A stretch of 64,000 bases of DNA from Dehalococcoidia bacterium (GTDB taxonomy: Bacteria; Chloroflexota; Dehalococcoidia; Bin125), in NCBI GenBank assembly GCA_022822855.1, contig JAJDYG010000009.1, positions 32,460 to 96,459 of the forward strand, in the 5' to 3' direction. Positions 63 to 47,603 of the stretch are shown here, one piece after another; position 1 is the stretch's first letter; every line of letters begins with the position of its first letter. Both the position numbers and the translations under genes were made by a program. Below the pieces are notes generated by a model, which was not told the DNA's origin, did not search any database, and saw nothing but the letters and a program-made list of their open reading frames with translations.

Positions 63-2099
63 ATGAGCGAGCGACAAGACGGTAGGAACTACTGGCAACG
101 CATGGGGCGGAATCGGATGAGCCGGCGTGCATTGCTGCGCGCCTCGGGCCGCGCCGGGGTCGGCGCGACCGGCTTGGCGCTGGTCGGCTGTGGCGACGAC
201 GATGACGACAGCGTCTCGCAGGTCGCTCAACAGCAGCAACAGCAACAGCAGGCGATGCAGCAGCAGGCCGCGCAGCAACAGCAGCAGCAGGCCATGCAGC
301 AGCAGCAGCAAGAGCAGGCTGCCGAACAGGCCGCGCAACAGGCCGACCAGCAGGAAGAGCAGGCGGTCGCCGACGCCGAACAGCAGCAGCAACAACAAGC
401 GGCTGCAGCCGTTCCGGAGACGGGCATTCCAACCTACGGCGGCACGATGCGCCGTTCATCGACGATCGAGACGCACGACTATTGGGACCCGCACCGCGGT
501 GTCTTCGGACCGACCCAGTTCATGCACTCGATGCTCTACAACAACCTGATCCGCTGGAAGAACAAGGAGAAGGCGGAGATGGAGGCAGACATCGCTGGTC
601 TGCCCGAGATCCCCGATCCGACGACGTACGTGTTCTCGCTCAATCCTCGCGCGGCGTGGCACGATGCCTACCCGACCGAGGGTGGCCGCAACATCACCGC
701 CGAAGACATCGTGGTCAACGTCGACCGCAACACGGCCGGCGTCGACTCGACCGGCGCCGAGGATGGTTCATTCCTGGGATTGTCGAGCTGGCGAAAGATC
801 GCGTCGGTCGAGGCAGTTGACGAGACGACGCTGCGCACGACGTCGGACGGGATCGACTCCACGTACCTGTCGGCAACCTTCCTGAGGCCGTTTGGCTGGA
901 TGGCCGCGCCGGAGGGCATCCGCGAGTGGGGCACTGAATCGGACGTCTGGCGCGACGACCCGACCACCTTGCGCGTCGCGGGCTCGGGGCCGTTCATCGC
1001 CGAGAGCTACGAGCCGACCGAGGTGTTCGTCGCGAACCGCAACCCGAACTACTGGAAGGACGACGCCTGGGGCCAGCAATTGCCCTACGTCGACCGGATG
1101 GAGTACTACAACCTCTTCGACGAGACGGCGATCGAAACCGCCTTGCGCTCGAAGGAGTTGGACGGCGCCTGGCTCAACATCAGCCGGGTCGAGTCACTGC
1201 TCGGCGACTTCCCCCAGATGCAGCGCAACACGGTCGGCGGCGGTTTCACGATCATGATCCGCACCAACTACAACCCCGACTGGCCGGGCGAGGACGGCGA
1301 GGGCAACCCCTGGCTCGACCGCCGCGTCGCCGCCGCCTTCCACCTGGCCACCGACCGGTATCTGATGATCGACACGGTCTATCTCGGTTCGGCCAAGCCG
1401 TCGGTGTTGGAAGAAATCCCCTGGTTCTCCACGTTCTGGTCACCTAGCCAGGAGGAGATGACGAACATCCCAGGCTTCCGCGCCGATCACGAGGCTGATC
1501 TTCAGGAAGCCAACGAGCTGATGGACGCCAGCGGCTTCCGCGACACAGGCCGATCGATCTACCTGTTCGCGCCTGACGTCTGGGAGCAGCGCTACCCCGG
1601 CATCGTCGAGACGGCGAAGAACATGTACGAGTCCGGTCTCGGCATCGGGGTCGAAATCAGCATCGACCCGTACACGATCCTGCTCCAGCGATTGGTCGAC
1701 GGCACCTCCACCGGTCAGATTCCCTGCTGGACTAACCCGCCCTCCGACCTCGACCCAACCAGCTACTGGCTCAACGGCCGCGTGCCGGGCGGTTCGGCGA
1801 ACTTCTACAGCTACGAGAACCCGCGCGTGACTGAGATCGCTGAGGAGATGAAGGTCACCCTCGATCTCGAGGCCAAGGGCGAACTCGGACGCGAGATGGT
1901 CGAACTGCAGCTGGGCATCCACCCCGACTATGGCTGGGAATCGCTCTCACCAGGTCTGGGCGTGATGAACCCGGTGTCGAACGAGGCGGCGTGGCCGTGG
2001 TACCACGTCATTCCCGACGGCTACCAGTTCGCTCACCAGGGCCACAAGATCGTCGAAGAGCTGTGGCTCGACACCGCCCACGAGGAGTACCCCGCCTGA
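63..2099 (+). CDS. ABC transporter substrate-binding protein, family 5 (peptide/nickel, DppA/OppA-like); Tat-signal lipoprotein with Q-rich linker
   Basis: N-terminal twin-arginine motif (SRRALLRASGRAGVG) followed by a lipobox (LALVGCGDDDDD). A ~90-aa Gln/Ala/Glu low-complexity linker follows, then a long family-5 SBP-like body. Three paralogs in the window share this architecture. Confidence 0.85.
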   Translation: MSERQDGRNYWQRMGRNRMSRRALLRASGRAGVGATGLALVGCGDDDDDSVSQVAQQQQQQQQAMQQQAAQQQQQQAMQQQQQEQAAEQAAQQADQQEEQAVADAEQQQQQQAAAAVPETGIPTYGGTMRRSSTIETHDYWDPHRGVFGPTQFMHSMLYNNLIRWKNKEKAEMEADIAGLPEIPDPTTYVFSLNPRAAWHDAYPTEGGRNITAEDIVVNVDRNTAGVDSTGAEDGSFLGLSSWRKIASVEAVDETTLRTTSDGIDSTYLSATFLRPFGWMAAPEGIREWGTESDVWRDDPTTLRVAGSGPFIAESYEPTEVFVANRNPNYWKDDAWGQQLPYVDRMEYYNLFDETAIETALRSKELDGAWLNISRVESLLGDFPQMQRNTVGGGFTIMIRTNYNPDWPGEDGEGNPWLDRRVAAAFHLATDRYLMIDTVYLGSAKPSVLEEIPWFSTFWSPSQEEMTNIPGFRADHEADLQEANELMDASGFRDTGRSIYLFAPDVWEQRYPGIVETAKNMYESGLGIGVEISIDPYTILLQRLVDGTSTGQIPCWTNPPSDLDPTSYWLNGRVPGGSANFYSYENPRVTEIAEEMKVTLDLEAKGELGREMVELQLGIHPDYGWESLSPGLGVMNPVSNEAAWPWYHVIPDGYQFAHQGHKIVEELWLDTAHEEYPA

Positions 2100-2253: not shown

Positions 2254-4269
2254 ATGAGCGACCGAAACTATTGGCAGCGGCTGAGGCGGAAGCAGATGAG
2301 TCGCCGGACGCTCTTGCGGGCGTCCGGTCGAGCCGGGGTGGGCGCCGCCGGCCTGGCGCTGGTCGGTTGCGGCGGCGACGACGATGACGACAGTGCCTCG
2401 CAGGTTGCTCAGCCGCAGCAACAGCAACAGCAGGCGACGCAGCAGCAGGCCCAACCGCAACAACAGCAGCAGGCCATGCAGCAGCAGGCCCAGCAACAGC
2501 AGGCAGAGGACTCTGCCGATCAGCAGGCCCAACAAGCCGACCAGCAAGAGCAAACCGTTGCTGACGCCGACGATCAGCAGCAGCAACAAGTCGCGGCGTC
2601 CAATATCGTCCGCGGAGGAGACCTGCGGTTCTCAACGCCTGCTGCAACCCACGACTATTTCGACCCGCACAGAGCCGTCTTTGGGCCCACCCAATTCTGG
2701 ATGGGCTTCTACATGAACTATCTGATTCGCTGGCGCAACAAGGAACAGGGGATTCTTGAGGCGGATGTCGCTTCGTTGCCGGAGATTCCCGATGACGAGA
2801 CATACATCTTTCGCGTTGACCAGGGGGCTCGCTACTGGGATCAGTACCCGACGGAAGGCGGGCGCGAGGTCACTGCCGAGGACATCCGATTGAATTTCCT
2901 GCGGCAGATCGAGGCCGTCGACGCTAATGGCGCTGAAGACGGTACCTTCCTTGGGGCATCGGCCTTCCGCAAGACCGCCTCGATGGACGTGCCGGACGAG
3001 ACGACCTTTGTCGCCAAGACGGACGGTCCGGACGCGACTTGGATGGGCGTTCCCCTACGTCCGTTTAGCTGGATCACCAGCCCCGAAGCGATCACGGAGT
3101 TTGGCGACCGCTGGCGCGACGAGCCGTCCAATGTCGAACTGTCGTCGGGAACCGGAATGTTCATCCCCCAGAACTTCGATCCGGACATCGGGATCGATAT
3201 GGTTCGCAACGACAACTACTGGAAGATGGGCGCCGACGGGCAGCCGCTGCCTTACAACGACACTGTCACGCTCTCGAACCTGACTGATCCCACCGCCGTT
3301 GAGGCTGCATACCGCGGACGTGAGATCTTCGTGGGCGGGTTCCCGCTCTCCTCCGTCCAGGCTGAGAGCATTCTTGGCGACTTCCCCGACCACGGCCAGG
3401 GACAGATCGCGTTCGGATTCACGATCATCACCGGCGGCGCGAACTTCAACGCCGATTATCCCGGAGAAGATGGTCTCGGTAATCCCTGGATCGATCGCCG
3501 CTTCACTCAGGCCATGCACGTCGCGGTCGATCGCTACCTGATGATTGACACCGTCTATCTCGGATCAGGAAAGCCCTCCGGGATGGGCGAGACGCCTTGG
3601 TACAACGCCTTCTGGGCGATTCCCGAGGACGAGCTCCTGCAGACGCCGGGCTTCCGCCCGGATCGCGAGGCTGACATCGCAGAGGCCCGGGCACTGTTCG
3701 ATGCGACCGGCTACGACCGGAGCCGCGGACTGACGCTGATTGCGCCTGACATCTGGGAAGGCACCTACCCGGGCATTCTTGAGACTGAGGTTGGCATGTA
3801 TCGCGAGGCCCTCGACCTCGAGGTCAGCTTCGACGTTCAGCCGTACACGGTCATCCTCCAGCGTTGGATCGAAGGCACGTATCCCGGTCAGGGTCCGCAA
3901 TGGACGAACCCGCCCTCCGACCTCGATCCGACAACGTCCTACAACAACAACTACATCCCGGGCGGCAGCACCAACAACCTCGCGTACGATCACCCGCGCA
4001 TGACGGAGATCGCTGAGACCATGACGGTCACCCTGGACCTGGAACAGCGCCAGCAGTTGGCCCACGAGGCTCAGCGGATCCTGCTTGGGACCCATCCTGA
4101 CTATGGGCTCGATGGTGTTGCCAACAGCCCGGGTGTGATGAACGGTATCTCGCCGGCAGTCTGGTGGCCGTTCGTCCATCGCAACGACGACACGCTCCAG
4201 TTTGCCCATGCCAGTCACCGCTACGACGACACCTGGGTCGACACTACTCACCCGGACTACCCGGCTTAG
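2254..4269 (+). CDS. ABC transporter substrate-binding protein, family 5 (paralog 2)
   Basis: Same N-terminal pattern (NYWQRLRRKQMSRRTLLRASGRAGVGAAGLALVGCGGDDDDD) and Q-rich linker. Conserved blocks shared with 63-2099 include FSTPAATHDYFDPHRAVFGPTQFWMGFYMNYLIRW and WTNPPSDLDPT. Confidence 0.85.
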   Translation: MSDRNYWQRLRRKQMSRRTLLRASGRAGVGAAGLALVGCGGDDDDDSASQVAQPQQQQQQATQQQAQPQQQQQAMQQQAQQQQAEDSADQQAQQADQQEQTVADADDQQQQQVAASNIVRGGDLRFSTPAATHDYFDPHRAVFGPTQFWMGFYMNYLIRWRNKEQGILEADVASLPEIPDDETYIFRVDQGARYWDQYPTEGGREVTAEDIRLNFLRQIEAVDANGAEDGTFLGASAFRKTASMDVPDETTFVAKTDGPDATWMGVPLRPFSWITSPEAITEFGDRWRDEPSNVELSSGTGMFIPQNFDPDIGIDMVRNDNYWKMGADGQPLPYNDTVTLSNLTDPTAVEAAYRGREIFVGGFPLSSVQAESILGDFPDHGQGQIAFGFTIITGGANFNADYPGEDGLGNPWIDRRFTQAMHVAVDRYLMIDTVYLGSGKPSGMGETPWYNAFWAIPEDELLQTPGFRPDREADIAEARALFDATGYDRSRGLTLIAPDIWEGTYPGILETEVGMYREALDLEVSFDVQPYTVILQRWIEGTYPGQGPQWTNPPSDLDPTTSYNNNYIPGGSTNNLAYDHPRMTEIAETMTVTLDLEQRQQLAHEAQRILLGTHPDYGLDGVANSPGVMNGISPAVWWPFVHRNDDTLQFAHASHRYDDTWVDTTHPDYPA

Positions 4270-4324: not shown

Positions 4325-5950
4325 ATGCAGCGATATCTCATCCAACGCCTAATCCTCGTGATTCCGACGCTTTGGTTGGTGATCTCGCTGCTCTTCTTGG
4401 CTCTGCGGGCACTGCCGGGAGACTTCGTCACCCGTAAGCTCTCCAACCTTGAGAACCAGGGCGCTGAGCAGCGCGAGTCGGAAATCGTCGGCTTCATAGA
4501 AGTCGAGGACACGACACACCGGGTGATCTCGGGCGACACCCTGGAGGACATCGCAACGGAGAACGCCACGACCGTCTCCGCGTTGCTCGCTCAGAACCCG
4601 GATCTCGACACATCGGGCGAGCTCAGGCCCGGCACCCGGATCACCGTCATTCCTGGCCAGTTGCTGTCGCAGATCGCCATCGGAGAGAAAATTTCACTGC
4701 CTGAAGAAGTGGATACCGGCGTGCAGTTGCTGCTCGACCGCAACCCGGACGTTGACTTTCCTCAGTATCAGGGCCAGCCTTACGCGGAAGCAGGGACGAT
4801 TCTGATCCTGCGGAACACTCTGACGCTCGATGAACTGGCGCACGTCAACCGGATCGATGCCAGCGACATCCTCGCGGTCAATCCCACCGGCAGCGCTAGC
4901 AATCCCGACGGGAACTTATCGGCCGACACGCAATTGATCCCAACAGGACTTGTGGTTGCCGAAGAGGGCGACACGCTTGAAGGGCTCGCCGCGGCATTCG
5001 GTCGCGACCTCGAAGCGATGACCGCGGCTAACCGTGGAGTAGACCCGGCCGAACCCTTAGAAGCGGGGACAGACATTCTCATCCCCTCGGACCGGATCGT
5101 GACTCCGACTACCAAAATCACCGAGGCAAACATTCGGCATCGACTGGGCATCGACAAGCCGCTAGGCACTCAGTACATCGATTTCCTCTGGGAGACTGTG
5201 CGGTTGAAGTTCCGGCCGTCCTTCCAGACCCAGGAAGGGTCGCTGGACATCTTCCTGCGCGCCTTGCCGCGGACGTTGCACCTGAATGTCTACGCGTTGA
5301 TCGTGGCCCTGGTGATCGCCCTACCGGTCGGCATTCTGTCCGCGATGCGGCAGGACCGGCCTCTGGACTATGCCTTGCGCGGGTTCGCCATCCTCGCGCT
5401 GGCCGCGCCTTCCTTCTGGATCGCAACGATGATGATCTTTGTCGTCACACCGGGAGGCATTTCAGAAGCCGGGATCTGGTCGATTCCGCTGACATCGGAA
5501 GAGGCGAGATCGGTCTTCTCCTCCTTCACCGGAGCTCTGGCCCTGTACTCGATTCCTGCCGTCGCTGGCGGCATCGCAGCGGGAGCCGGCTTGATGCGGA
5601 TCACCCGGTCCGAACTGCTTGAGGTGCTGCGACAGGACTACGTCCGTACCGCATGGTCCAAGGGGCTCCGCGAACGAACAGTGATTCGCCGTCACGCGAT
5701 GCGCAACGCCCTGGTCAACGTGATGAGCGTCCTCGGCCTGCAGATTGCAGCGCTGGTCGGCGGCAACATCATCCTCGAGCTGCTGTTCAACATCCCAGGC
5801 ATCGGACTGTTGCTCATTCAGCGCATCAATCAGGCCGACCTGCCGGTCGTGCAGACGATGGTGTTCTTCTTCGCCCTGTTCATCATCATCGTGAACATCA
5901 TCATCGACATCTCGTACGCGGTGATTGACCCGCGTATTCGATACACCTAA
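4325..5950 (+). CDS. ABC transporter permease, DppB/OppB-like, with ~230-aa periplasmic insertion containing LysM-like repeats
   Basis: N-terminal TM helix plus the PGD motif typical of DppB. The conserved LGIDKPLGTQYIDFLW segment and C-terminal TM core (ALRNALVNV..IDISYAVIDPRIRY) are present. Between TM1 and the LGIDKP block lie three LysM-like units, e.g. HRVISGDTLEDIATENATTVSALLAQNPDLDTSGELRPGTRITVIPG. Confidence 0.85.
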   Translation: MQRYLIQRLILVIPTLWLVISLLFLALRALPGDFVTRKLSNLENQGAEQRESEIVGFIEVEDTTHRVISGDTLEDIATENATTVSALLAQNPDLDTSGELRPGTRITVIPGQLLSQIAIGEKISLPEEVDTGVQLLLDRNPDVDFPQYQGQPYAEAGTILILRNTLTLDELAHVNRIDASDILAVNPTGSASNPDGNLSADTQLIPTGLVVAEEGDTLEGLAAAFGRDLEAMTAANRGVDPAEPLEAGTDILIPSDRIVTPTTKITEANIRHRLGIDKPLGTQYIDFLWETVRLKFRPSFQTQEGSLDIFLRALPRTLHLNVYALIVALVIALPVGILSAMRQDRPLDYALRGFAILALAAPSFWIATMMIFVVTPGGISEAGIWSIPLTSEEARSVFSSFTGALALYSIPAVAGGIAAGAGLMRITRSELLEVLRQDYVRTAWSKGLRERTVIRRHAMRNALVNVMSVLGLQIAALVGGNIILELLFNIPGIGLLLIQRINQADLPVVQTMVFFFALFIIIVNIIIDISYAVIDPRIRYT

Positions 5951-5973: not shown

Positions 5974-7215
5974 ATGAGTGACGAACGGCAATCGAATTCT
6001 GCGCAGCTGGAAGAGTTCGCGCAGGCCCAGGGACTTCGCGTCGAGGAACGAAGCACGTTCCAACTGGTCTCGAGAGCGCTCGTCTCATTCTTCAAAACCA
6101 AGCCGCTCGGCGCTGCCGGTCTGATGCTCGTGGTGGTCTGGTCAATCATCGCCGTGGGCACGGTTGGTTCAGGCGGCGGCTGGCTCGGCATCGGTCGCTA
6201 CGACTCGCAGGATGTCTTCAAGGTCGCCAACGCCAGCTTTGCCGACGACAAGATCGCAAACGAACTTGACGGCAAGCCGGCAGACATTTCTGACGGCGAA
6301 CTGCGCGAGCTGCTCCTTAACCCCGCCGTCTACGGCGATCTGGCCAGGGATTCGGGCGTTCTCGATGACATGCTGGAGTATGTCGAAGGGCGAATCGCCG
6401 ACGGCACCTTGCTCACTCATCTACAGGAGATAGACCCAGCGCAAATCGAGATCGCCAACGGCGTCATCGCGGATGTCGATGATCTGCTCGCCACCGGTAC
6501 CAACACTCCGTTGACGACGGCTTCGTTGCAGGGTCCGTCGCCCAAACACTGGTTCGGCACCGACCGCGCCGGGCATGACCTCTTCTCCCGCGTCACCGAA
6601 GGCGCGCGTCTGTCGCTCTACATCGGCTTCTTCGCCACCTTGATAGGTGTTGTCGCCGGAACCGCGATCGGGCTGATCTCTGGCGGCTTGGGCGGCAACA
6701 TCGACCTAGCGATCAACCGCCTGATGGACGCGCTGCTCTCCTTCCCGCCGATTGTGCTGTTGCTGCTCCTTCGTTCAGTCACTGAACCTTCGGCGCTCTG
6801 GGTGACATTGGCTCTCTCGGTGCTGGCGGTCGGACCTGTCCAGCGCATCGTGCGAGGCGCGGTAATCGCACTGCGGGAAATGCCGTTCGTCGAGGCGGCG
6901 CGCACCCTCGGCGCGACCAACGCGCGGATCATGTTGCTGCATATTCTGCCCAACATCGTCGCGCCGCTGATCGTGATCTTCTCGATTACGATCGGCGCCT
7001 TCATCCTCGCCGAGGCAGCGCTCAGCTTCCTCGGCCTGGGCACGCTGGACGTCTCCTGGGGCAAGATGATTGCCGACGGCCGCCAGTTCATCGTCCAGTC
7101 GCCGTGGACGTCACTGTTCGCCGGCCTCGCTCTGACCAGCTTGGTCTTCGGCTTCAACGTCCTCGGTGACGCCTTGCGGGACGTCTTTGATCCCCGTCTC
7201 CGTGGCAGTCGCTGA
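5974..7215 (+). CDS. ABC transporter permease, DppC/OppC-like, with extended N-terminal periplasmic region
   Basis: HWFGTDRAGHDLFSRV motif, EAA-like loop and C-terminal GDALRDVFDPRLRG. About 110 aa longer than typical DppC. Confidence 0.85.
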   Translation: MSDERQSNSAQLEEFAQAQGLRVEERSTFQLVSRALVSFFKTKPLGAAGLMLVVVWSIIAVGTVGSGGGWLGIGRYDSQDVFKVANASFADDKIANELDGKPADISDGELRELLLNPAVYGDLARDSGVLDDMLEYVEGRIADGTLLTHLQEIDPAQIEIANGVIADVDDLLATGTNTPLTTASLQGPSPKHWFGTDRAGHDLFSRVTEGARLSLYIGFFATLIGVVAGTAIGLISGGLGGNIDLAINRLMDALLSFPPIVLLLLLRSVTEPSALWVTLALSVLAVGPVQRIVRGAVIALREMPFVEAARTLGATNARIMLLHILPNIVAPLIVIFSITIGAFILAEAALSFLGLGTLDVSWGKMIADGRQFIVQSPWTSLFAGLALTSLVFGFNVLGDALRDVFDPRLRGSR

Positions 7216-7363: not shown

Positions 7364-9376
7364 ATGCCCGAGCGGAACTACTGGCAACGCATTCGACGCA
7401 ACAAGATGAGTCGGCGCGCGCTCTTGCGCGCATCGGGAAGGGCAGGAGTCGGTGCCGCCGGTTTGGCCCTCGTCGGCTGTGGCGGCGACGATGACGACGA
7501 CCAACAGTCCGTTGCTCAGACAGCCGATCAGCAGCAACAGCAGCAGCAGGCCATGCAACAGCAGGCCGATCAGCAGCAGCAACAGCAGGCGATGCAGCAG
7601 CAATCGCAGGAACAGCAAGCTGAGCAGGCTGCACAGCAGGCCGACCAGGAAGAGCAGGAGACGGCAGCCCAGGCCCAACAACAGCAACAGCAACAGGCCG
7701 CCAGCGTCGACCGCTACGGCGGAACACTGCGTTTCTCGACCCCTGCTGCGACCCACGACTTCTTCGACCCACATCGTGGCGTGTTCGGCCCCACCCAGTA
7801 CTGGATGGGGTTCTACATGAACTACATGATCCGCTGGGCCACGAAGGAAGGCGGGGTCATGGAGGAGGACATCACCTCCTTGCCCGAGCTGCCCGATGCC
7901 GAGACCTACATCTTCAGCGTCGACCGAGGCGCGCGCTACTGGGATCAGTACCCCACAGAGGGTGGTCGCGAGGTCACCGCTTCCGACATTCAGCTCAACT
8001 TCGAACGGCAGATCGAGGCGCTCGACGCGGAGGGCAACCCTGACGCCCGCTTCCGCGGCCAGGATGCATTCAAGAAGACCGCCTCGATGGAAGTGCCCGA
8101 CGATGGCACTTTCATCGCCCGCACCGATGGCCCCGATGCGACCTACCTCGGCGGCACCATTCTGCGTCCCTTCTCTTGGATTACCTCACCCGAGGGCATC
8201 CAGGAGTTCGGCACTCGCTGGCGCGACGAGACCGCCAACGTCGAGCTCTCGTCGGGTACCGGGCCGTACATTCCGCAGACCTACGACCCGGACATTGGCA
8301 TCTACCTTGAGCGCAACCCCAACTACTGGAAGAACGCGTCGGATGGCAGCCAGCTGCCGTTCATGGACGCCGTCGAGTTCGTCAACCTGACCGATGCGAC
8401 CGCCGTTGACGCCGCCTATCGCGGCAAGGGCATCGACATCGGTGGATTTCCGCTGTCTGCGGTACAGGTGGAGGAGTTGACCGGTGACTTCCCGGACCAT
8501 GAGGTCCGTGAGGGCGCGTTCGGATTCACCGTCGTCACGGTGATGGGCACGTACCAGCCCGGCTGGGAAGGCTCGGACGGTCTGGGCAATCCTTACCTCG
8601 ACCGGCGCTTCGCGTACGCGATGAACGTGGCGGTCGACCGCGACCTGCTGATCGATGCGGTCTACCTGGGAGCGGCCAAGCCGTCCGCGACACACTTCTG
8701 CCCCTGGTTCTCGACCTACTGGACGATTCCGCCGGAGGAGCTGCGCACGATTCCGGGCTTCCGCCTGAACCGCGACGAGGACATCCAGTTGTGCCGTGAG
8801 TTGATTGCTGCGTCCGGGTTTGACACCGACCGGACAGTCACGATCTACATCCCGGACCTTTGGGAGCAGACCTACCCGGGTATCACCGAGACGACCCGCA
8901 ACATGTACGCCGAGGCGACCGGCATCAACGTCGAGCTGGACATCCAGCCGTACACGGTGATGCAGGACCGCTACGACAACCAGACCTTCCCCGGCCGAGC
9001 GCCGACCTGGACCAACCCTCCGGCCGACCTCGACCCAACCGCGCAGTTCACGCTGTCGCTCAAGGTCGGTGGTGCCTCGAACCTGACCCAGTACAACTAC
9101 GCTCCAACAGAGGAGATCGTTGACGAGATGGCGGTCACGCTGGACACCGAACAGCGCCGCGACATGGGACTCAAGGTGCAGCGAATCGGCCTCGGCGTCG
9201 ATGAAGAGCACGGCCTTGACGGCATCTTCGGCTGGTTCGGTGTGATGAACGGTATCGCGCCGACAATCTGGTGGCCGTACGTCAACCGCCCGGACCACAC
9301 CTGGCAGTTCGCGCACGACTCCCACAACTTCGACACGGCCTGGGTCGACACCCAACACGCCGAGTACCCGGCATAA
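7364..9376 (+). CDS. ABC transporter substrate-binding protein, family 5 (paralog 3)
   Basis: Tat motif plus lipobox, Q-rich linker, and paralogous blocks shared with the other SBPs. Confidence 0.85.
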   Translation: MPERNYWQRIRRNKMSRRALLRASGRAGVGAAGLALVGCGGDDDDDQQSVAQTADQQQQQQQAMQQQADQQQQQQAMQQQSQEQQAEQAAQQADQEEQETAAQAQQQQQQQAASVDRYGGTLRFSTPAATHDFFDPHRGVFGPTQYWMGFYMNYMIRWATKEGGVMEEDITSLPELPDAETYIFSVDRGARYWDQYPTEGGREVTASDIQLNFERQIEALDAEGNPDARFRGQDAFKKTASMEVPDDGTFIARTDGPDATYLGGTILRPFSWITSPEGIQEFGTRWRDETANVELSSGTGPYIPQTYDPDIGIYLERNPNYWKNASDGSQLPFMDAVEFVNLTDATAVDAAYRGKGIDIGGFPLSAVQVEELTGDFPDHEVREGAFGFTVVTVMGTYQPGWEGSDGLGNPYLDRRFAYAMNVAVDRDLLIDAVYLGAAKPSATHFCPWFSTYWTIPPEELRTIPGFRLNRDEDIQLCRELIAASGFDTDRTVTIYIPDLWEQTYPGITETTRNMYAEATGINVELDIQPYTVMQDRYDNQTFPGRAPTWTNPPADLDPTAQFTLSLKVGGASNLTQYNYAPTEEIVDEMAVTLDTEQRRDMGLKVQRIGLGVDEEHGLDGIFGWFGVMNGIAPTIWWPYVNRPDHTWQFAHDSHNFDTAWVDTQHAEYPA

Positions 9377-9516: not shown

Positions 9517-10998
9517 ATGCAGAAGTACCTGATCCGACGATTCCTGCTTGTGATCCCCACCTTGTGGCTGGTTATCTCGATCCTCTTCCTCGTGCTGAAT
9601 GCGTTGCCGGGCGACTACGTCACAATCAAGCTGTCCAACTTGGAAGCATCAGGCGCGACCAAGATTGAAGCTGAGATCGTCGGCGAGCTGGAGGTCGAAC
9701 GCACCCTGCATCGCGTCGTCGGTGGCGACACTGTCGCCTCAGTTGCGGCGCAGTATGGGGCTGCCGTTGACGACATCGTTGCCGTCAACCCCAATCTTGA
9801 TGCCGGATCTGAGCTTCGGCCCGGCTCGACCATCGTGGTGATCGATGGCCAACTCCTCTCGTCTATCGCCCGGACCTCGAGGCTTTCCCTGCCCGAGGAG
9901 AATGAAGCGGGCATCGCGCTGCTTCAGGAGCGCAACCCCGACGTTGAATTCGGCACCTTCGCCGGTCAGCCGTTCGCGCCCGCCGGCGTCACTCTGACCC
10001 TGCGCGAGAGCACGACCTTACGTGAACTCGCCGAAGTCAACCGCGTCTCCCCCGACGACTACATGAACGTCAACTTGGAGGGCACTCCCGCCAATGAAGA
10101 TGGCTCCTTGACCGTCGATACGCCGCTCTTACCCGGCGACATCTACATCTCGCCGACCCGAGAGATCACCGAGGCGAGCATCAAACATCAGCTTGGCATC
10201 GACAAGCCGCTGGGCCAGCAGTACATCGAGTACCTGTGGGACACGATCCGGTTCCAGTTCCGACCGTCCTTCCAGACCAACGAACCGTCGATGGACATCT
10301 TCCTGCGCTCGTTGCCACGGACGCTGCACCTGAATGCTTACGCGTTGATCGTGGCAGTCACCGTGGCGTTGCCGGTTGGCATCCTCTCGGCGATGCGGCA
10401 GGACCAGGCGCTCGATTACGGACTGCGAGGATTCGCCATCCTGGCCTTGGCCGCGCCTTCCTTCTGGATCGCGACCATGATGATCTTTGTGGTCTCGCCG
10501 GGTGGCATCTTCGAAGGAGGGATTTGGTCGATCCCGCTCACCGACGAGGAGGCGCGGAGCATCTTTACCTCGGTTGATGGGTTCTTTGCGCTCTACACGA
10601 TTCCGGCTGTAGCGGGCGGCATAGCCGCCGGCGCCGGACTAATGCGCATCACTCGCTCCGAGTTGCTCGAGGTCCTGCGTCAGGACTACGTGCGCACGGC
10701 TTGGTCAAAGGGCTTGCGCGAGCGAGCCGTGATCCGCCGGCACGCGCTTCGCAACGCGCTCGTGCCGGTGCTCAGCGTGTTCGGACTGCAGTTGGCGGCC
10801 CTGGTCGGCGGCAACATCATCCTCGAAGTGCTGTTCAACATCCCCGGCGTCGGACTCATGCTGCTGCAGCGGCTCTACCAGGCAGACATCCCAGTGATCC
10901 AGACGGCGGTGTTCTTCCTCGCGCTGTTTGTGATCATCGTCAACATCGTGATCGACATCAGCTACGCGCTGATCGATCCGCGCATCCGCTACACCTAG
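9517..10998 (+). CDS. ABC transporter permease, DppB/OppB-like, with LysM-like periplasmic insertion (paralog)
   Basis: Collinear with 4325-5950. Carries the LysM-like unit HRVVGGDTVASVAAQYGAAVDDIVAVNPNLDAGSELRPGSTIVVIDG and the LGIDKPLGQQYIEYLW block. Confidence 0.85.
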   Translation: MQKYLIRRFLLVIPTLWLVISILFLVLNALPGDYVTIKLSNLEASGATKIEAEIVGELEVERTLHRVVGGDTVASVAAQYGAAVDDIVAVNPNLDAGSELRPGSTIVVIDGQLLSSIARTSRLSLPEENEAGIALLQERNPDVEFGTFAGQPFAPAGVTLTLRESTTLRELAEVNRVSPDDYMNVNLEGTPANEDGSLTVDTPLLPGDIYISPTREITEASIKHQLGIDKPLGQQYIEYLWDTIRFQFRPSFQTNEPSMDIFLRSLPRTLHLNAYALIVAVTVALPVGILSAMRQDQALDYGLRGFAILALAAPSFWIATMMIFVVSPGGIFEGGIWSIPLTDEEARSIFTSVDGFFALYTIPAVAGGIAAGAGLMRITRSELLEVLRQDYVRTAWSKGLRERAVIRRHALRNALVPVLSVFGLQLAALVGGNIILEVLFNIPGVGLMLLQRLYQADIPVIQTAVFFLALFVIIVNIVIDISYALIDPRIRYT

Positions 10999-11024: not shown

Positions 11025-12257
11025 ATGAGCCAGCAATCCGGCGCCACCGATCAACTCGACGATTTTGCCGCGACTGAGGGTCTGCGCATCGATCAGGCGA
11101 CCGGCCTGCGGCGCGCCCTGGTCTCCTTCCGCGACTTCATGGTGACCAAGCGCCTCGGCGCTGCCGGCGTGATAATCGTCGTGCTCTGGAGCGTGATCGC
11201 CGTTGGTACCGTCGGTGACGGCGGAGGCTGGTTGGGAATCGGGCGCTACGACTCGCGCAGCGTGTTCGAAATCCCTTCCGTCAAGTACGCCGATGACAAG
11301 CTCGCCAACGCGCTTGATGGCCTCTCCGCCGACACCTCGGACGCTGAGCTCCGCGCCATCGTCAGCGAACCCGAGATTTTCGGCGAGCCCGCTGCTGACG
11401 TCAACGTTCAGGCCGAAATGGTCGACTATGCGCTGCAGCAGATCGAGGCCGGACTGCTGCTGGAGACCCTGATCGAAGAGGAACAGATCGAGATCCAGGA
11501 CGGCACCATCGTCGACGTCGACAGCTTGCTCGCCGCTGGAACTGACAATCCACTGATTACCGCCTCGCTGCTGGGACCTTCGGGTAAACACTGGTTTGGA
11601 ACCGATCGTGCCGGACACGATCTGTTCTCGCGGGTCACCGAGGGCGCAAGGCTATCGCTGTACATCGGATTCTTCGCCACGCTGATCGGCGTAATCGCCG
11701 GCACAGCGACCGGTCTAATCTCAGGCTCATTTGGAGGTTCGGTCGATCTGGTCATCAACCGCATTCTTGACGCCGTTCAGAGCTTCCCGCCAATCGCATT
11801 CCTGCTTCTGATCGCTTCGATCACCGATCCCTCAGCGCTGTGGGTGACGCTGTCGCTCTCGGTGTTGGGGATTGCGCCGACTAATCGGATTGTCCGAGGG
11901 AGCGTGATCCAGATTCGCGAGATGCCGTACGTCGAGGCAGCTCGTACGATCGGCGCAAACTCGACACGAGTGATGGGATTCCACATCCTGCCCAATATTT
12001 TCGCGCCCCTGATCGTCATTTTCTCGATCACGATCGGTGCATTCATCCTCGCCGAAGCAGCGCTTAGCTTCCTTGGCTTGGGCACGCTCGATGTGTCGTG
12101 GGGGAAGATGATTGCCGACGGACGCCAGTTCATCGTCTATTCGCCCTGGACATCGCTCTGGGCCGGTCTCGCCTTGACCTCGCTCGTCTTCGGCTTCAAC
12201 GTTCTCGGTGACGCCCTGCGGGATGTCCTCGACCCGCGACTTCGTGGTAGCCGCTAG
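11025..12257 (+). CDS. ABC transporter permease, DppC/OppC-like (paralog)
   Basis: Collinear with 5974-7215. The start is placed at the ATG of MSQQSG (11025) rather than the ORF-track start at 10701, which overlaps the upstream permease. Confidence 0.8.
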   Translation: MSQQSGATDQLDDFAATEGLRIDQATGLRRALVSFRDFMVTKRLGAAGVIIVVLWSVIAVGTVGDGGGWLGIGRYDSRSVFEIPSVKYADDKLANALDGLSADTSDAELRAIVSEPEIFGEPAADVNVQAEMVDYALQQIEAGLLLETLIEEEQIEIQDGTIVDVDSLLAAGTDNPLITASLLGPSGKHWFGTDRAGHDLFSRVTEGARLSLYIGFFATLIGVIAGTATGLISGSFGGSVDLVINRILDAVQSFPPIAFLLLIASITDPSALWVTLSLSVLGIAPTNRIVRGSVIQIREMPYVEAARTIGANSTRVMGFHILPNIFAPLIVIFSITIGAFILAEAALSFLGLGTLDVSWGKMIADGRQFIVYSPWTSLWAGLALTSLVFGFNVLGDALRDVLDPRLRGSR

Positions 12258-15366: not shown

Positions 15367-15488
15367 GCCGGTCAGGAACCACTGCGACATAGGAGGCCGT
15401 TCGATGGTCGGTTAGGATTGCCCTATGCGTTGCATCGTCTCTGCCGGTGCCGCGGCGTGGATCTTCCGATGACTCGAAGGGGACAGTG

Positions 15489-16139
15489 ATGCCCGAACTT
15501 TCTATCAGCGATCAGATCGTCCTGTTGGGACTAGGCGAAGACGGAGTGCTCGACCGGCCATACGACGGCCGGCTCGACTACGCGATTGCCGGAGCGTCGC
15601 TGCTGGACCTGTCGTTCCTGAATCGGATCGATACCGACCCCAACCGGCTGTTCATCATCTCCGCTGACTCGACCGGCAATCCGCTGCTCGACAGTGTGCT
15701 TCATCAGATCAATTCCGGCCCGCCCAATCAGCCGATCTCATACTGGATCTCCGAGATCGCGCGATACTCGCTCGTGCTTCGACAGCAGATCATTGAAGAC
15801 CTGACCGATCGACACGTCATCCAGCGGGAAGCCGGACGCCGGCTGATCGTGCTCAAGTCGGAGAAGTTCCCGCCGGTCGATCCACAGGTTGTCCGCGATG
15901 TCCAGCGCAAGCTGATCGATACCCTCCTCTCCGACGAGATCCCCGACCCCGAGACGGTCGCCCTGATCGGTCTGGCGCGGGCCAGCCGTCTGCTCGAGCT
16001 CTTGCTTCCCCGCGAGTACCTCGACCGCGTCGAAACCCGCATCGAACAGCTCGCCCGCATGGACCTGATCGGCATGAGCGTGAACCGCACCCTGGACGAA
16101 ATCCAGGCGGCCGTCGCGCTCGCGGTGCCGGGCCTCTAG
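15489..16139 (+). CDS. GPP34/GOLPH3-like family protein (hypothetical)
   Basis: N-terminal pattern LSISDQIVLLGLGEDG ... YAIAGASLLDLSFLNRI resembles the GPP34 family. Start taken at the internal Met (MPELSIS). Confidence 0.5.
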   Translation: MPELSISDQIVLLGLGEDGVLDRPYDGRLDYAIAGASLLDLSFLNRIDTDPNRLFIISADSTGNPLLDSVLHQINSGPPNQPISYWISEIARYSLVLRQQIIEDLTDRHVIQREAGRRLIVLKSEKFPPVDPQVVRDVQRKLIDTLLSDEIPDPETVALIGLARASRLLELLLPREYLDRVETRIEQLARMDLIGMSVNRTLDEIQAAVALAVPGL

Positions 16140-20132: not shown

Positions 20133-20221
20133 CGCCGGCCCAGGGGCTGTGTTCGGCGGGGACTTTTCCGGCGGTTTGTCAGCTCACGGCGAAGCTGAGA
20201 GCAGGTGAGTCCTCCCCAGAA

Positions 20222-20272
20222 AAAAAACAGGCGCGAAAAAAAAGAGAAGACCCGCGTTACAACGGGTCGTCA
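20222..20272 (-). terminator. Rho-independent terminator (minus strand)
   Basis: Hairpin GACCCG-cgttacaa-CGGGTC. On the minus strand it is followed by TCTCTTTTTTTTCGCGCCTGTTTTTTTTCTG. T-runs are rare in this GC-rich sequence. Confidence 0.5.
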
Positions 20273-20562
20273 TCTTGCTCGGACAGCTCCTCCTCCTCGA
20301 TGCGGGCGTCGCAGGATGGTCCATGTTCGGAGGCGGGGACGGCTGGTTCGCGGTCGTAGAGGTCGCGGAGCTTATGGCGTGCGAGCTCGAATGCGTCGGT
20401 GGCCTGGAGCATCTGTTGGATGATTCGGCGTTGGGGGTTGGCGGGGGAGAGCATGCGTGCGAGGGCACCCGCGGCGGCGACGGCAATGTAGGCCGGCCTG
20501 GATGGGTCGGCGAGGCAGGCGAGTCGGTGGACGGTGGCGCGGTAGTGGAGCGGAGTTGGCAT
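20257..20562 (-). CDS. Hypothetical small protein with acidic C-terminus
   Basis: ORF ending inside the terminator hairpin, downstream of the esterase gene on the same strand. No recognisable domain. Confidence 0.3.
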   Translation of the reverse strand: MPTPLHYRATVHRLACLADPSRPAYIAVAAAGALARMLSPANPQRRIIQQMLQATDAFELARHKLRDLYDREPAVPASEHGPSCDARIEEEELSEQDDDPL

Positions 20563-20749
20563 GAGGATGGCCTCCCTGTTCAGAACGGACTGATGTTCTT
20601 ATCCTACGCAGTTTGGGAGGCGATAGGGGAACGGCGGGAGTCTGATCCGGGGTGTGTAGCGTCGAAGACGGGGGCGAAGGGAGAGCCGGGCGGGTCCCCC
20701 CGATCAGGTCGGGGGCAGGCTCCGAGTGAATCGGGGACTGGAAGACTCG

Positions 20750-21910
20750 TTAGAGGGACGCGTAGAGGGCGTCGATGAGGACGGTGCAGCGGGGGTCGTG
20801 GGCGACTTCGGTGCCCATCTGGTTCATGACGTAGCCGAAGCCGATGTTGGCGTCGAGGTCGGCGTAGCCGAGGGAGCCTCCGGCGCCAGAGTGGCCGAAG
20901 GCTCGGGGATTGGGGCCGTAGGGCGTGGATTCTCCGGTGAGGGCCCAGCCGAGTGCGAAGCGGGTGTTGATGCCGATGCAGGCGTCGGGGCCGTTGGTCT
21001 GTTCCTCGATGCCGTTCTCGATGGTTTCCGGACTGAGGACATGGACGCCGTCGATCTGGCCGCCGTTGGCGGCGGCGCCGTAGATGCGGGCCAGGGCGCG
21101 GGCGGTCGCGTGTCCGTTGGCGGCGGGGATCTCGGCGGCCCGCCAGTCGCGTCGCGACGCCATCGCCGGCCCGCCGGGGTTGAAGACCGGCGGATTGACG
21201 ACGGCGACGATGCCAACGCTGTCGGGGTCGCCGAACAGGTCGCTGGTGGGCGGGAACTCGGCGGCGATCTGGGGTTCGATCACGGTCGAGATGCGGGCGT
21301 CGAATTCAGGACCGGTGCCGATGTGGGCGTCGAGGCCTAGGGGCGCGGCGAACTCCTCGCGGAAGTACGTACCCAGCGAGCGGCCGTCGATCCGGCGGAC
21401 CACCTCGCCGACCAGCCAGCCGAAGGTCATGGCGTGGTAGCCGTGCTTCTCGCCGGGTGTCCACCAGGGCTCCTGCTCGGCGAGGGCCGAGGTCATGGTT
21501 TCCCAGTTGAACATGTCCTCGGCGACGAGCTCGCGCTTGACGGCGGCCATGCCTGCCTTGTGGCAGAGCAGCCAGCGGACCGGGATGTCCTGTTTGCCGG
21601 CGGCGGCAAACTCGGGCCAGTACTCGGCGACTGGGGCGTCGATATCGAGCCTGCCCTGTTCGACCAGCCGGTGAGCGCAGAACGCTGTGAGCCCCTTGGT
21701 CGAGGAGTAGACGTTGACGAGCGTGTTGCGATCCCATTCGCGCTCACGGTCGGGCGCGTACCAGCCGCCCCAGAGGTCGACGACGGGCTCTCCGTTGAGG
21801 TAGATGGCGACGGCTGCGCCGACTTCGTTGCGCTCGTCGAAGTTGCTCTCGAACGCTCGTCTGACGGCGTCGAAGCGCGGGTCGTTCCATCCGTGGATTG
21901 GAGTGGTCAT
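20750..21910 (-). CDS. Serine hydrolase, beta-lactamase/esterase (class C-like) family
   Basis: S-x-x-K motif (YSSTKGL). Start placed at MTTPIHGW by alignment with paralog 22084-23244. The upstream part of the ORF-track frame is encoded by the hairpin repeats. Confidence 0.8.
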   Translation of the reverse strand: MTTPIHGWNDPRFDAVRRAFESNFDERNEVGAAVAIYLNGEPVVDLWGGWYAPDREREWDRNTLVNVYSSTKGLTAFCAHRLVEQGRLDIDAPVAEYWPEFAAAGKQDIPVRWLLCHKAGMAAVKRELVAEDMFNWETMTSALAEQEPWWTPGEKHGYHAMTFGWLVGEVVRRIDGRSLGTYFREEFAAPLGLDAHIGTGPEFDARISTVIEPQIAAEFPPTSDLFGDPDSVGIVAVVNPPVFNPGGPAMASRRDWRAAEIPAANGHATARALARIYGAAANGGQIDGVHVLSPETIENGIEEQTNGPDACIGINTRFALGWALTGESTPYGPNPRAFGHSGAGGSLGYADLDANIGFGYVMNQMGTEVAHDPRCTVLIDALYASL

Positions 21911-21930
21911 GGTTGGTCCTTGTGGCTGGG

Positions 21931-22075
21931 AGCCCCCCTCTGCCTTCGGCATCTCCCCCCAGAGGGGGGAGAGAAGGATGGGAGTCAGCATCTCCCCAGA
22001 AGGGGAGAGAGTGAGAGAGGAAGCGGCGTCTCCTTCAGATGGGGAGAGTGGGTAGGAGTCGGCAGCTCCCTATGC
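21931..22075. repeat. Three tandem GC-rich palindromic hairpin units (CTCCCC..GGGGAG type)
   Basis: Units gcatctccccccagagggggagag, gcatctccccagaaggggagagag and gcgtctccttcagatggggagag lie between two co-directional paralogous genes. Confidence 0.75.
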
Positions 22076-22083
22076 GCTAGAAG

Positions 22084-40597: not shown

Positions 40598-42613
40598 TTA
40601 GGCCGAGTACTCCGGATGCGTCGTGTCAAGCCAGGTGTCGTCGTAGCGATGCGAGGCATGGGCGAACTGGTAGACGTCCTCGGAGTTGTGCACGTAGGGC
40701 CACTCGACCTGCGGCGAAATGGCGTTCATCACGGACGGCTGACCGGTCATCCCCTCAACCCCATGGTCGGGATGGACACCGAGGAAGATCTTGAGCAGTT
40801 CGGAGGCTGTCTCCTTGCGTTTGTCGACATCGAGTTCGGTCCGCATGCCCCTGATCATCTCCTCCGCAGGCGGGTAGTTGTACTGCGAGAAGTTGGAGCT
40901 GCCACCGGCGACGTGAGTGATGTTCCACTCACCGGTCGGGTCAAGGTCTTGCGGCGGGTTGGTCCAGGCTGGCGTTTGGCCGGGGTGGGTGCCCTCCAGC
41001 AGACGCTGAAGAATGACGGTGTACGGCTGGATGTCCATCGACAGCGTGACCCCCAAGGCCTGCTCGTACATCGAGCGCACCGTCTCCGTGATGCCCGGAT
41101 AGGTCTGTTCCCAGACGTCCGGCGTGATCCAGTAGAAGGTCCGGCTGTCGCGATCGACGCCCGCGGCATCCAGCAGTTCATTCGCCATCTGGATGTCGGC
41201 ATCGCGATTCGGCCGGTATCCGGGCCACGTGGCGAGTTCTTCGGGCGGGACCGTCCAGGCCTGGTTGAACCACGGTGCCTGAGCGATCGCGCTGATCTTG
41301 GCCGAGCCCAGGTAGACGGCATCGATCAACAGGTAGCGGTCGGTGGCCACGTGGAAGGCATAGGCCAAACGACGGTCCGCCCACGGATTGCCCAGTCCAT
41401 CCTCACCCGGCCAGTCCGGGTTGAAGTTGTAGCGGATCTGAATCGTGAAACCGAAGGGAACGTCGAAGACGTTGTGTTCGGGGAAGTCGCTCAGAATGCC
41501 CTCAACCTGCAGGCTCGAAAGCGGGAATCCGCCAATGTCGATCCCCTTGCCGCGATACGCGGCGTCGACAGCAGTCGCGTCGACGAGGTTCGTGAACTCG
41601 ACCCGATCCAGATATGGCAGCGCGCCGCCGTCTGCCCCGTTCTTCCAGTAGTTCGGGTTGACATCGAGATTGATGCCAAGGTCCGGGTCGTAGTTGAGCG
41701 GCATGTACGCTCCCGTGCCGGAAGAGAGCTCGACGTTCGTCTGCTCGTCACGCCAGCGGTTACCGAACTCGGTGATCGCCTCGGGTGAGGTGATCCAGGA
41801 GAACGGGCTCAGGTGCGCGCCCAGATAGGTCGAGTCAGGCTCGGCGGTCGTGTAGGTAATCGTCGTGTCATCGACGACTTCGAGCTTGTCCGTCTGCTGG
41901 TATTTGCTCGCGGTCAGGAATGACGTGTCCTCAACGCCGTCCGCGTCAACGGAATCGATCTGCCGCTGAGAGTTGAATCGAATATCCTCCGCCGTGACCA
42001 GCCGTCCACCCTCCGTCGGGTAGCGGTCCCAGAACCGCGCGCCCTGGTCGACGCTGAAGATGTAGGTGGTGTCGTCGGGAATCTCTGGCAGCGACGCAAT
42101 GTCGCTCTCCATGATTCCCTTTTCCTTGTTTCGCCAGCGGATGAGGTAGTTCATGTAGAACCCCATCCAGAACTGGGTCGGACCGAACACCGCGCGGTGC
42201 GGATCGAAGTAATCGTGGGTGGCCGCCGGAGTCGAGAAGCGAAGCGTGCCGCCTCTTGTCAGGCCTGAGGTGTCGGCGACGGCCTGCTGTTGCGCCTGAT
42301 CCGCTTGGTCCTGTTGAGTCTGCTCTTGCTGATCAGCCTGCGAGGCCGACTGGTCGGCCTGTTGCTCCTGGTCCTGCTGCATGGCCTGTTGCTGTTGTTG
42401 CTGCATGGCCTGCTGTTGCGCGGCTTGCTGTTGCGCTTGCTGCTGTTGTTGCGCAGCGGTGACGGCCTGCTGGCCGTCGTCGTCATCGTCGCCGCAACCG
42501 ACCAACGCGAGGCCAGCCGCGCCGACACCGGCGCGCGACGAGGCTCGCAGGAGCGAACGCCTGCTCATTCGCTTACGCGCCATTCGCTGCCAGTAGTTCT
42601 GTCGCTCGGTCAT
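40598..42613 (-). CDS. ABC transporter substrate-binding protein, family 5 (paralog 4)
   Basis: Same Tat/lipobox N-terminus (NYWQRMARKRMSRRSLLRASSRAGVGAAGLALVGCGDDDDD), Q-rich linker and paralogous blocks. It stands alone with no adjacent permeases. Confidence 0.85.
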   Translation of the reverse strand: MTERQNYWQRMARKRMSRRSLLRASSRAGVGAAGLALVGCGDDDDDGQQAVTAAQQQQQAQQQAAQQQAMQQQQQQAMQQDQEQQADQSASQADQQEQTQQDQADQAQQQAVADTSGLTRGGTLRFSTPAATHDYFDPHRAVFGPTQFWMGFYMNYLIRWRNKEKGIMESDIASLPEIPDDTTYIFSVDQGARFWDRYPTEGGRLVTAEDIRFNSQRQIDSVDADGVEDTSFLTASKYQQTDKLEVVDDTTITYTTAEPDSTYLGAHLSPFSWITSPEAITEFGNRWRDEQTNVELSSGTGAYMPLNYDPDLGINLDVNPNYWKNGADGGALPYLDRVEFTNLVDATAVDAAYRGKGIDIGGFPLSSLQVEGILSDFPEHNVFDVPFGFTIQIRYNFNPDWPGEDGLGNPWADRRLAYAFHVATDRYLLIDAVYLGSAKISAIAQAPWFNQAWTVPPEELATWPGYRPNRDADIQMANELLDAAGVDRDSRTFYWITPDVWEQTYPGITETVRSMYEQALGVTLSMDIQPYTVILQRLLEGTHPGQTPAWTNPPQDLDPTGEWNITHVAGGSSNFSQYNYPPAEEMIRGMRTELDVDKRKETASELLKIFLGVHPDHGVEGMTGQPSVMNAISPQVEWPYVHNSEDVYQFAHASHRYDDTWLDTTHPEYSA

Positions 42614-47502: not shown

Positions 47503-47603
47503 CTCAGAGCCCAGAGTAGACTTGCGGCGGTACGTCCTCAGTCGCACCGCGACAGTTCCCCCTGTTGAGAGGGGGGCTGCAGTTGCTGGAAAGGAACTCT
47601 CCA

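Follow-up and report, generated by a model that had tools for sequence, protein, structure and literature searches.

What does a carbohydrate-binding type of domain do inside the membrane subunit of an ATP-binding cassette (ABC) importer? The question is raised by the permease gene B1, which lies in a stretch of 64,000 nucleotides from a Dehalococcoidia bacterium (contig JAJDYG010000009.1 of assembly GCA_022822855.1, positions 32,460 to 96,459; hereafter the window, to which all coordinates refer unless a related locus is named) and which an initial annotation, made from the DNA alone, described as a DppB-type permease with an unusual LysM-like insertion of about 230 residues. The fusion of the two domain types is real and conserved and was previously undescribed, no account of a LysM domain within an ABC permease having been found in the literature searched; the sequences themselves are already public. 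As modeled, the insert is composed of two canonical LysM domains (units 1 and 4) parted by two degenerate LysM-like units (units 2 and 3), and this module is predicted to be grafted onto the tip of the very element that normally touches the binding protein.

Identity of the permease and position of the insert

By all sequence comparisons, B1 is a genuine membrane subunit of a type I ABC importer of the DppB/OppB class. Pfam assigns residues 332-539 of its 541-residue open reading frame to BPD_transp_1 (PF00528, E = 1.7e-37) and residues 268-292 to a fragment of BPD_transp_1_N (profile positions 49-73), while the alignment with the closest system, Escherichia coli DppB (8z1v_A, E = 2.3e-44), pairs B1 residues 2-35 with DppB residues 2-35 and B1 residues 267-540 with DppB residues 49-337. 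Both the family assignment and the size of the insertion are thereby confirmed, ~13 residues of DppB being exchanged for ~231 in B1 (about residues 36-266). The alignment covers the first transmembrane helix (TM1), the PGD motif, helices alpha2 and alpha3 (LG.DKP..QY), the core of six helices and the RTA coupling loop, which reads DYVRTAWSKGL in B1 and DYIRTARAKGL in DppB. Hydropathy places TM2 at residues 322-340, with TM1 at residues 9-27. By hydropathy, the DppB alignment and the AlphaFold2 (AF2) model, the insert is separated by three membrane spans from the EAA-type loop DYVRTAWSKGLRER; as this loop has to meet the ATPase in the cytoplasm, the insert lies on the extracytoplasmic side, where the initial annotation had also supposed it to be.

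In the cryo-electron microscopy study of DppABCDF, which also names the 'RTA' coupling helix of DppB, DppB residues 32-62 constitute a periplasmic 'scoop motif' (alpha1-loop-alpha2, including E41/R42) that inserts into the interlobe cleft of DppA once this has docked, and whose deletion impairs transport (PMC12136057). The insertion point of B1 falls within this motif. In the AF2 model the lead region comprises a helix (residues 31-44, equivalent to alpha1) and two strands (49-53 and 57-59), and the return region a strand (257-261) followed by two helices (262-274, equivalent to alpha2, and 280-292), such that alpha1 and alpha2 are both kept with ~210 inserted residues between them, whereas the scoop of E. 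coli DppB amounts to ~30 residues and holds no LysM-type fold. Residues N41 and E43 of the lead segment are invariant. B1 departs from the DppB/OppB family in having no short scoop and no ATPase genes in its operon. Neither the interruption of the scoop motif nor the additional extracytoplasmic domain that is also carried by the DppC-type partner had been noticed in the initial annotation.

Two canonical LysM units and two degenerate LysM-like units

Scanned whole, B1 gives a match to the LysM family (PF01476, gathering score 20.9 bits) with E = 9e-18 in two stretches, residues 65-108 and ~217-254. When the insert is scanned as separate 60-residue pieces, units 1 and 4 on their own return E = 3.9e-10 and E = 1.4e-6, respectively, with scores (Table 1) above the gathering threshold, and they coincide with the two repeats that had been singled out as the clearest examples. 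No Pfam match, even at E <= 10, is obtained with the 98 residues that separate them; the expected LysM hits on residues ~60-290 are thus found for units 1 and 4 and absent for units 2 and 3. Alignment to unit 1 with hhalign gives a probability of 95% for unit 4, 8% for unit 2 (E = 1e-3) and 30% for unit 3 (E = 1e-4). In profile searches of PDB sequences, unit 2 retrieves nothing significant, its top matches being LysM receptor kinases at E = 0.23, and no LysM protein is among the matches of unit 3. With the Pfam, hhalign and PDB profile searches all non-significant, units 2 and 3 were rejected as LysM by sequence, and at this level LysM identity is demonstrable for only two of the four units, namely 1 and 4.

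The unit count comes from two AF2 models, one of the whole of B1 and one of the insert alone, both computed from shallow, single-family alignments. The predicted local distance difference test score (pLDDT) is 72 overall and 83-90 over the insert in the former model, and 87.3 in the latter, which has a predicted template modeling score of 0.76. In both models four successive beta-alpha-alpha-beta units are seen (residues 63-109, 111-155, 159-~207 and 208-253) rather than the three LysM-like units originally proposed, and they are flanked by a short beta stalk formed by strands 49-59 and 257-261. Unit 2 is built of a strand (111-113), two helices (114-120 and 126-139) and a strand (151-155), and unit 3 of a strand (159-161) and two helices (168-174 and 179-185). 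In Foldseek searches of the PDB the top matches for the insert are all LysM proteins (E = 1.6e-5 to 1e-3), among which solved single LysM domains superpose on the predicted model with a root-mean-square deviation (rmsd) of 1.2-1.6 Å across 46-48 columns, and the top multi-domain matches are Ecp6, plant LysM receptor ectodomains and the LysM pair of a Thermus thermophilus P60 protein. The chitin-binding Ecp6 is also the nearest solved sequence to the insert (E = 4e-5). The GDTL and Asn motifs occur in units 1 and 4, and the Asn at the end of helix 2 is invariant in units 1-3 (N91, N140 and N186), with Asn233 occupying this position in unit 4. Since sequence profiles fail for units 2 and 3, these are termed LysM-like by their predicted fold, which, with the helix-2 Asn, is all that points to a LysM ancestry.

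Tandem LysM folds resembling those of B1 are present in Ecp6 (4b8v), in plant LysM receptors (4eby, 5ls2 and 5jcd) and in the T. thermophilus NlpC/P60 pair (4uz2/4uz3), but these are secreted proteins or single-pass ectodomains and their global superposition on the insert is poor (TM-score ~0.2, rmsd >10 Å), from which it follows that the packing between units would differ from that in the known multi-LysM receptors. B1 differs from these also in that two of its four units are degenerate.

Distribution and conservation

The close homologs of B1 are without exception Chloroflexota/Dehalococcoidia proteins from metagenome-assembled genomes (MAGs), which fall into a 541-residue and a 492-493-residue class, carry precomputed assignments to both PF01476 and PF00528 and bear the database name 'ABC transporter permease subunit'. 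In an exhaustive HMMER search of 1.84 billion representative proteins at 50% identity, about six representatives possess the insert, and the next matches are ordinary permeases of 303-340 residues with 43-44% identity, in agreement with both the rarity and the usual permease length stated in the initial annotation. Two of the insert-bearing representatives, P0122 and P0123, sit on Dehalococcoidia contigs of the related loci L041 and L014, respectively, and a third, P0094, is a B2-class protein (see below); with three of the approximately six placed in this way, the insert appears to be restricted to one lineage of Dehalococcoidia MAGs. A seeming exception, an Anaerolineae permease with LysM (L058), was rejected, since the protein is a usual type of M23 peptidase that bears a pair of LysM domains. 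A scan of one genome per species located the insert-bearing gene in 48 loci, all from Dehalococcoidia or Chloroflexi(ota) MAGs, one of which is bin125 from the sponge Aplysina aerophoba (PMC5649159). A haloarchaeal source, first entertained on account of the acidic proteins, the lipoproteins with twin-arginine signals and a guanine plus cytosine content of 63-65%, was rejected, the close relatives all being Dehalococcoidia MAGs.

The 36 orthologs of B1 in related genomes are 541 residues long throughout, with zero insertions or deletions, beside which stands the 492-493-residue class. Across these orthologs the ratio of nonsynonymous to synonymous substitution rates (dN/dS) is 0.06 in the core and reaches the minimum for the protein, 0.03, in the lead segment (residues 36-59); the values for units 1 to 4 are 0.16, 0.14, 0.13 and 0.20, respectively. 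Purifying selection thus acts on the LysM module, which is acidic as well as conserved, and the LysM-insert architecture lies far beyond chance.

Paralogous permeases and the probable gain of unit 4

The second copy of the permease announced in the initial annotation, B2, does carry an insert with a LysM domain (one match, in unit 1, of 33 bits, E = 5.9e-8), but the insert is not the same, as the alignment of B2 with B1 contains a single gap of 48 residues that removes unit 4 exactly. Unit 1 is found in B2 and in two of the three representatives of a further class, B3. In contrast, unit 4 is confined to one subclade and is missing from the 492-residue sister class, which is the nearest to B1 (81% core identity), as well as from B2 and B3; given this confinement, a single gain is favored.

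The third pair, B3-C3 (~40% identity), occurs in some related genomes and is absent from the window. Its coordinates in locus L004 are 18093-19502 and about 19500-20608, and it is also present in loci L005, L014-L016, L018, L035, L038, L041-L043 and L048. B3 keeps the insert (units 1-3), lacks the EAA coupling loop and attains a marginal BPD_transp_1 score, and is probably not a working permease.

Partner subunits, binding proteins and ATPases

As expected for the Dpp/Opp class, genes for DppC-type partners and for family-5 solute-binding proteins (SBPs) adjoin both B1 and B2 (Table 1), which on this basis are assigned as the DppB-type subunits of two importers, each with a DppC-type partner and family-5 binding lipoproteins. 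The partners C1 and C2 are ~110 residues longer than solved DppC/OppC proteins, and the alignment of C1 with OppC (8z21_B) begins only at residue 189 of the query and residue 79 of the chain. The acidic insert of the DppC-type partners (isoelectric point about 4, and 4.05 in C1) gives no Pfam match, and the length of the partner is 410-415 residues in all relatives. Both membrane subunits are therefore enlarged on their outer face. All four binding proteins of the window have a twin-arginine translocation (Tat) motif (SRRxLLR), a lipobox (LVGC) and, before the folded domain, an unusually long poly-Q/acidic linker of ~85 residues.

Synteny is conserved over the 48 loci, the order being two to five binding proteins, B1, C1, a binding protein, B2 and C2, in some followed by B3-C3, and then genes for a metallo-beta-lactamase (MBL)-fold hydrolase, a short-chain dehydrogenase/reductase (SDR), an alcohol dehydrogenase (ADH), a GPP34-family protein and an acyl-CoA dehydrogenase. 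No gene for a cognate ATPase of the DppD/DppF type is found in the window, either with Pfam ABC_tran on the scanned reading frames or by a search for paired Walker A and signature motifs. ATPase motifs upstream of the transporter in 14 related loci were considered as cognates; the two that were checked with Pfam (L027 and L046) belong to ABC-2 exporters. The cognate ATPases are presumably encoded elsewhere.

Table 1. Coordinates of the permeases, their parts and the associated transport genes in the window.
Feature	Position (nt)	Strand	Basis or remark
B1, DppB/OppB-type ABC importer permease with LysM-array insert	4325..5950	+	541-residue reading frame; Pfam; DppB alignment
B1 TM1, residues 9-27	4349..4405	+	Hydropathy peak 2.78; aligns within DppB 2-35
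B1 scoop helix alpha1, lead segment and short beta stalk, residues 31-59, ..PGDFVTRKLSNLENQGAEQRESEIVG..	4415..4501	+	AF2
B1 unit 1, residues 60-110, canonical LysM, GDTL motif and Asn91	4502..4654	+	Pfam 40.0 bits; AF2
B1 unit 2, residues 111-158, degenerate LysM-like, invariant Asn140	4655..4798	+	AF2 only; no Pfam match
B1 unit 3, residues 159-207, degenerate LysM-like, invariant Asn186	4799..4945	+	AF2 only; no Pfam match
B1 unit 4, residues 208-256, canonical LysM (EGDTLEGLA...AANRG...ILIP), 541-residue class only	4946..5092	+	Pfam 28.6 bits
B1 return strand and scoop helices alpha2/alpha3, residues 257-292, ..VTPTTKITEANIRHRLGIDKPLGTQYIDFLWE..	5093..5200	+	AF2; Pfam; DppB from residue 49
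B1 transmembrane core BPD_transp_1, residues 332-539, including EAA-type coupling loop DYVRTAWSKGLRER	5318..5941	+	Pfam; DppB alignment
C1, DppC/OppC-type partner, 413 residues, own acidic insert	5974..7215	+	Pfam BPD_transp_1 229-410
C1 acidic insert, ~120 residues (~65-185), between TM1 and TM2	6166..6528	+	
B2, paralogous permease, 493 residues, units 1-3 only	9517..10998	+	64% identical to B1; one LysM match
B2 unit 1	9694..9846	+	
B2 units 2-3	9847..10131	+	
C2, paralogous DppC-type partner, same acidic insert	11025..12257	+	Pfam; start codon checked
SBPa, family-5 solute-binding lipoprotein	63..2099	+	Pfam SBP_bac_5; Tat signal, lipobox, poly-Q linker
SBPb, family-5 solute-binding lipoprotein directly upstream of B1	2254..4269	+	Pfam SBP_bac_5
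SBPc, family-5 solute-binding lipoprotein directly upstream of B2	7364..9376	+	Pfam SBP_bac_5; N-terminus
Fourth family-5 binding-protein gene	40598..42613	-	

Possible roles of the LysM module

In the usual view of Dpp/Opp-class importers, all substrate recognition rests with the soluble binding protein, and the short scoop of the membrane subunit does no more than enter its cleft. The reading that we favor, tentatively, is that the LysM module of B1 acts as a built-in co-receptor that captures or holds soluble molecules bearing N-acetylglucosamine (GlcNAc) beside the docking binding protein, because a compact module of 230 residues would be only a few nanometers tall and is located at the membrane and at the mouth of the translocation path. 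The canonical units (unit 1 throughout and, in B1, also unit 4) would, from what is known of the LysM family, bind a GlcNAc-containing glycan, with units 2 and 3 as a structural spacer; candidate ligands would be peptidoglycan fragments or muropeptides, or chitin-type oligomers, and the putative outcome either a higher local concentration or the selection of glycan-tagged cargo. In favor of this reading are the LysM identity of units 1 and 4, the confidently modeled compact fold, the extracytoplasmic location within the scoop and the constraint on the module. Dpp/Opp-class systems of other bacteria that have family-5 binding proteins import murein tripeptide (MppA-Opp), chitobiose and other oligosaccharides. 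That one subclade possesses a second canonical LysM (unit 4) accords with selection for multivalent glycan binding rather than for a fixed protein-protein surface.

Several observations weigh against a glycan co-receptor. Sequence methods fail to recognize two of the four units as LysM, unit 1 has a relaxed GDT motif (GNT, GDS or EDS) in the B2 and B3 classes, and the alignments behind the AF2 models are shallow and drawn from a single family. No amino-sugar or muropeptide catabolic genes occur among the window neighbors scanned with Pfam, and the binding proteins match characterized ones at 24-43 bits only, too distant for a substrate call; no homology of the window binding proteins to MppA or to chitobiose-binding proteins rises above background. 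A module located at the scoop could, moreover, equally serve protein docking. In its most specific form, in which the LysM array occupies the place of the scoop as a glycan receptor borne by the membrane subunit and the systems are dedicated importers of muropeptides or chitin oligomers in sponge symbionts, the proposal is unlikely, but if true it would describe the first ABC importer whose translocator itself recognizes part of the cargo in cooperation with a soluble binding protein.

The same LysM units might instead serve as a tether, binding the peptidoglycan, nascent glycan strands or lipid II of the cell itself and holding the translocator beneath the wall or where the wall is turned over, whatever its cargo. 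The classical peptidoglycan affinity of LysM and the canonical character of units 1 and 4 would suit this role, as would the occurrence of the module in all paralogs whichever binding protein adjoins. The bearing of the cell envelope is divided. Peptidoglycan synthesis is lacking in sponge SAR202 genomes (PMC6306507), in cultured SAR202 (PMC10444878) and in Dehalococcoidales (PMC10284905), and with so many Dehalococcoidia devoid of peptidoglycan a tether to the cell's own wall is not to be assumed. However, basal orders of Dehalococcoidia retain peptidoglycan together with flagella, both having been lost together in the class (PMC10284905), and the present lineage may be one of these: the GTDB order Bin125, named from bin125, corresponds to TK10/Candidatus Umbricyclopia (PMC10608941), and flagellar genes are present in TK10 MAGs (PMC6169038). 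The literature searched yielded no statement about the cell wall of order Bin125; the lineage may well have one. Even so, in Tepidiforma the peptidoglycan layer measures ~20 nm within a 40-nm periplasm (PMC10284905), and judged by these dimensions a module of a few nanometers would be unable to reach the wall. The literature searched also yielded no precedent for a wall-anchored ABC importer. We give a tether a low likelihood, somewhat below that of the co-receptor.

We assign a similarly low likelihood to a role that involves no glycan, in which the LysM array and the acidic insert of the DppC-type partner would form a protein scaffold that replaces or extends the scoop and serves as an enlarged landing site for the several large, long-tethered binding lipoproteins, analogous to the MalF P2 loop of the maltose importer. 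The insert falls right within the motif through which E. coli DppB touches its binding protein, extra extracytoplasmic domains are predicted on both membrane subunits, and at least four binding-protein paralogs are available for two permease pairs. Consistent with such a docking platform are also the best conservation among the units for units 2 and 3 (dN/dS 0.13-0.14), which have lost their LysM signatures, and the presence of unrelated domains (BNR propeller, immunoglobulin (Ig)-like) in the same loop of other DppB-like permeases. These points must be set against the full canonical LysM signatures that are kept in units 1 and 4, the second canonical LysM that was added in one subclade although a fixed docking surface would have no need of it, and the fact that LysM domains are uncommon in purely protein contacts. 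That the insert is instead a functionless, lineage-specific loop expansion, tolerated and unused, might be suspected from its confinement to one lineage and from unit dN/dS values 2-3 times that of the core, but this is highly improbable in view of the complete lack of insertions and deletions in 36 orthologs, dN/dS values (0.13-0.20) well under neutrality, the retention of the module in three paralog classes and its confidently predicted fold.

Whichever role applies, a carbohydrate-binding type of module of more than 200 residues is found at the scoop, and an entire symbiont lineage has kept it in three classes of paralogs. Should it bind glycans, as the favored co-receptor reading holds, this would show that a translocator can supply its own receptor and would point to the uptake of wall- or chitin-derived material by abundant sponge Chloroflexota; should its ligand be the binding protein, the module would represent a new docking solution for monoderm cells with long-tethered lipoprotein receptors. 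In either case a concrete, expressible domain of 230 residues is available.

Comparison with other importers

The P2 domain of MalF in E. coli MalFGK2, an Ig-like domain in the TM3-TM4 loop that binds MalE, resembles the B1 insert in being a folded accessory domain in a periplasmic loop of a type I importer membrane subunit, near the docking site of the binding protein. It differs in subunit family, loop and fold, and for the LysM insert of B1 a contact with the docked binding protein is plausible by position. Importers of the GlnPQ/OpuA type have domains of the periplasmic-binding-protein fold fused at a terminus of the membrane subunit and in this sense share with B1 an extracytoplasmic, putatively ligand-binding domain that is covalently attached to that subunit, but the insert of B1 is of the LysM type, lies inside a loop and coexists with separately encoded binding proteins. 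In MppA-OppBCDF and the chitobiose importers, the soluble binding protein alone sets the specificity, and no glycan-binding domain is present in the permeases; as Dpp/Opp-class systems that handle wall peptides or GlcNAc oligomers, they indicate that such cargo would be compatible with this class of transporter.

Inserts in the extracytoplasmic loop between TM1 and TM2 are also found in other DppB-like permeases, of 423-699 residues (P0147, P0196, P0229, P0178, P0221 and P0170). In P0147, P0196 and P0229 the insert is a BNR/Ycf48-like propeller, placed after alpha3 and not inside the scoop as in B1, while P0178 contains a segment with a weak, sub-threshold match to Big_2 (Ig-like) and some of the other inserts have no match at all. 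This distribution suggests that the TM1-TM2 loop is a recurrent site for accessory domains. Were the systems of the window dedicated importers of the kind considered above, the propeller- and Ig-bearing relatives would be further cases of an 'accessory receptor in the TM1-TM2 loop' principle.

Other genes of the window

The genes 3' of the transporter encode an MBL-fold hydrolase, an SDR, a zinc-dependent ADH, a GPP34-family protein, an acyl-CoA dehydrogenase and a CoA-transferase. The GPP34 (Golgi phosphoprotein 3) family gene (15447-16139, + strand) is syntenic 3' of the transporter in most related genomes. The window also has a gene for an 892-residue protein with two CoA-transferase III stretches (17454-20132, +) and two adjoining genes for LipL-like proteins of the esterase/beta-lactamase fold (20750-23244, -). 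The PF00144 genes were considered as D-peptidases and rejected, as they resemble LipL-type esterases. Two luciferase-like monooxygenases are encoded at 33716-34771 (-) and 39095-40387 (-), and, with several genes for SDR, ADH and acyl-CoA dehydrogenase proteins added, these CoA-transferase, esterase and monooxygenase genes make up a paralog-rich catabolic repertoire.

The product of 46876-47604 (-) matches the NpmA family of 16S rRNA (adenine1408-N1) methyltransferases (PF24675, E = 3e-48), a family known for aminoglycoside resistance, and a gene for a 787-residue, eukaryote-like protein with RCC1 repeats (30519-32882, +) extends past the start of the gene for an N6/N4 DNA methylase (32869-33726, +).

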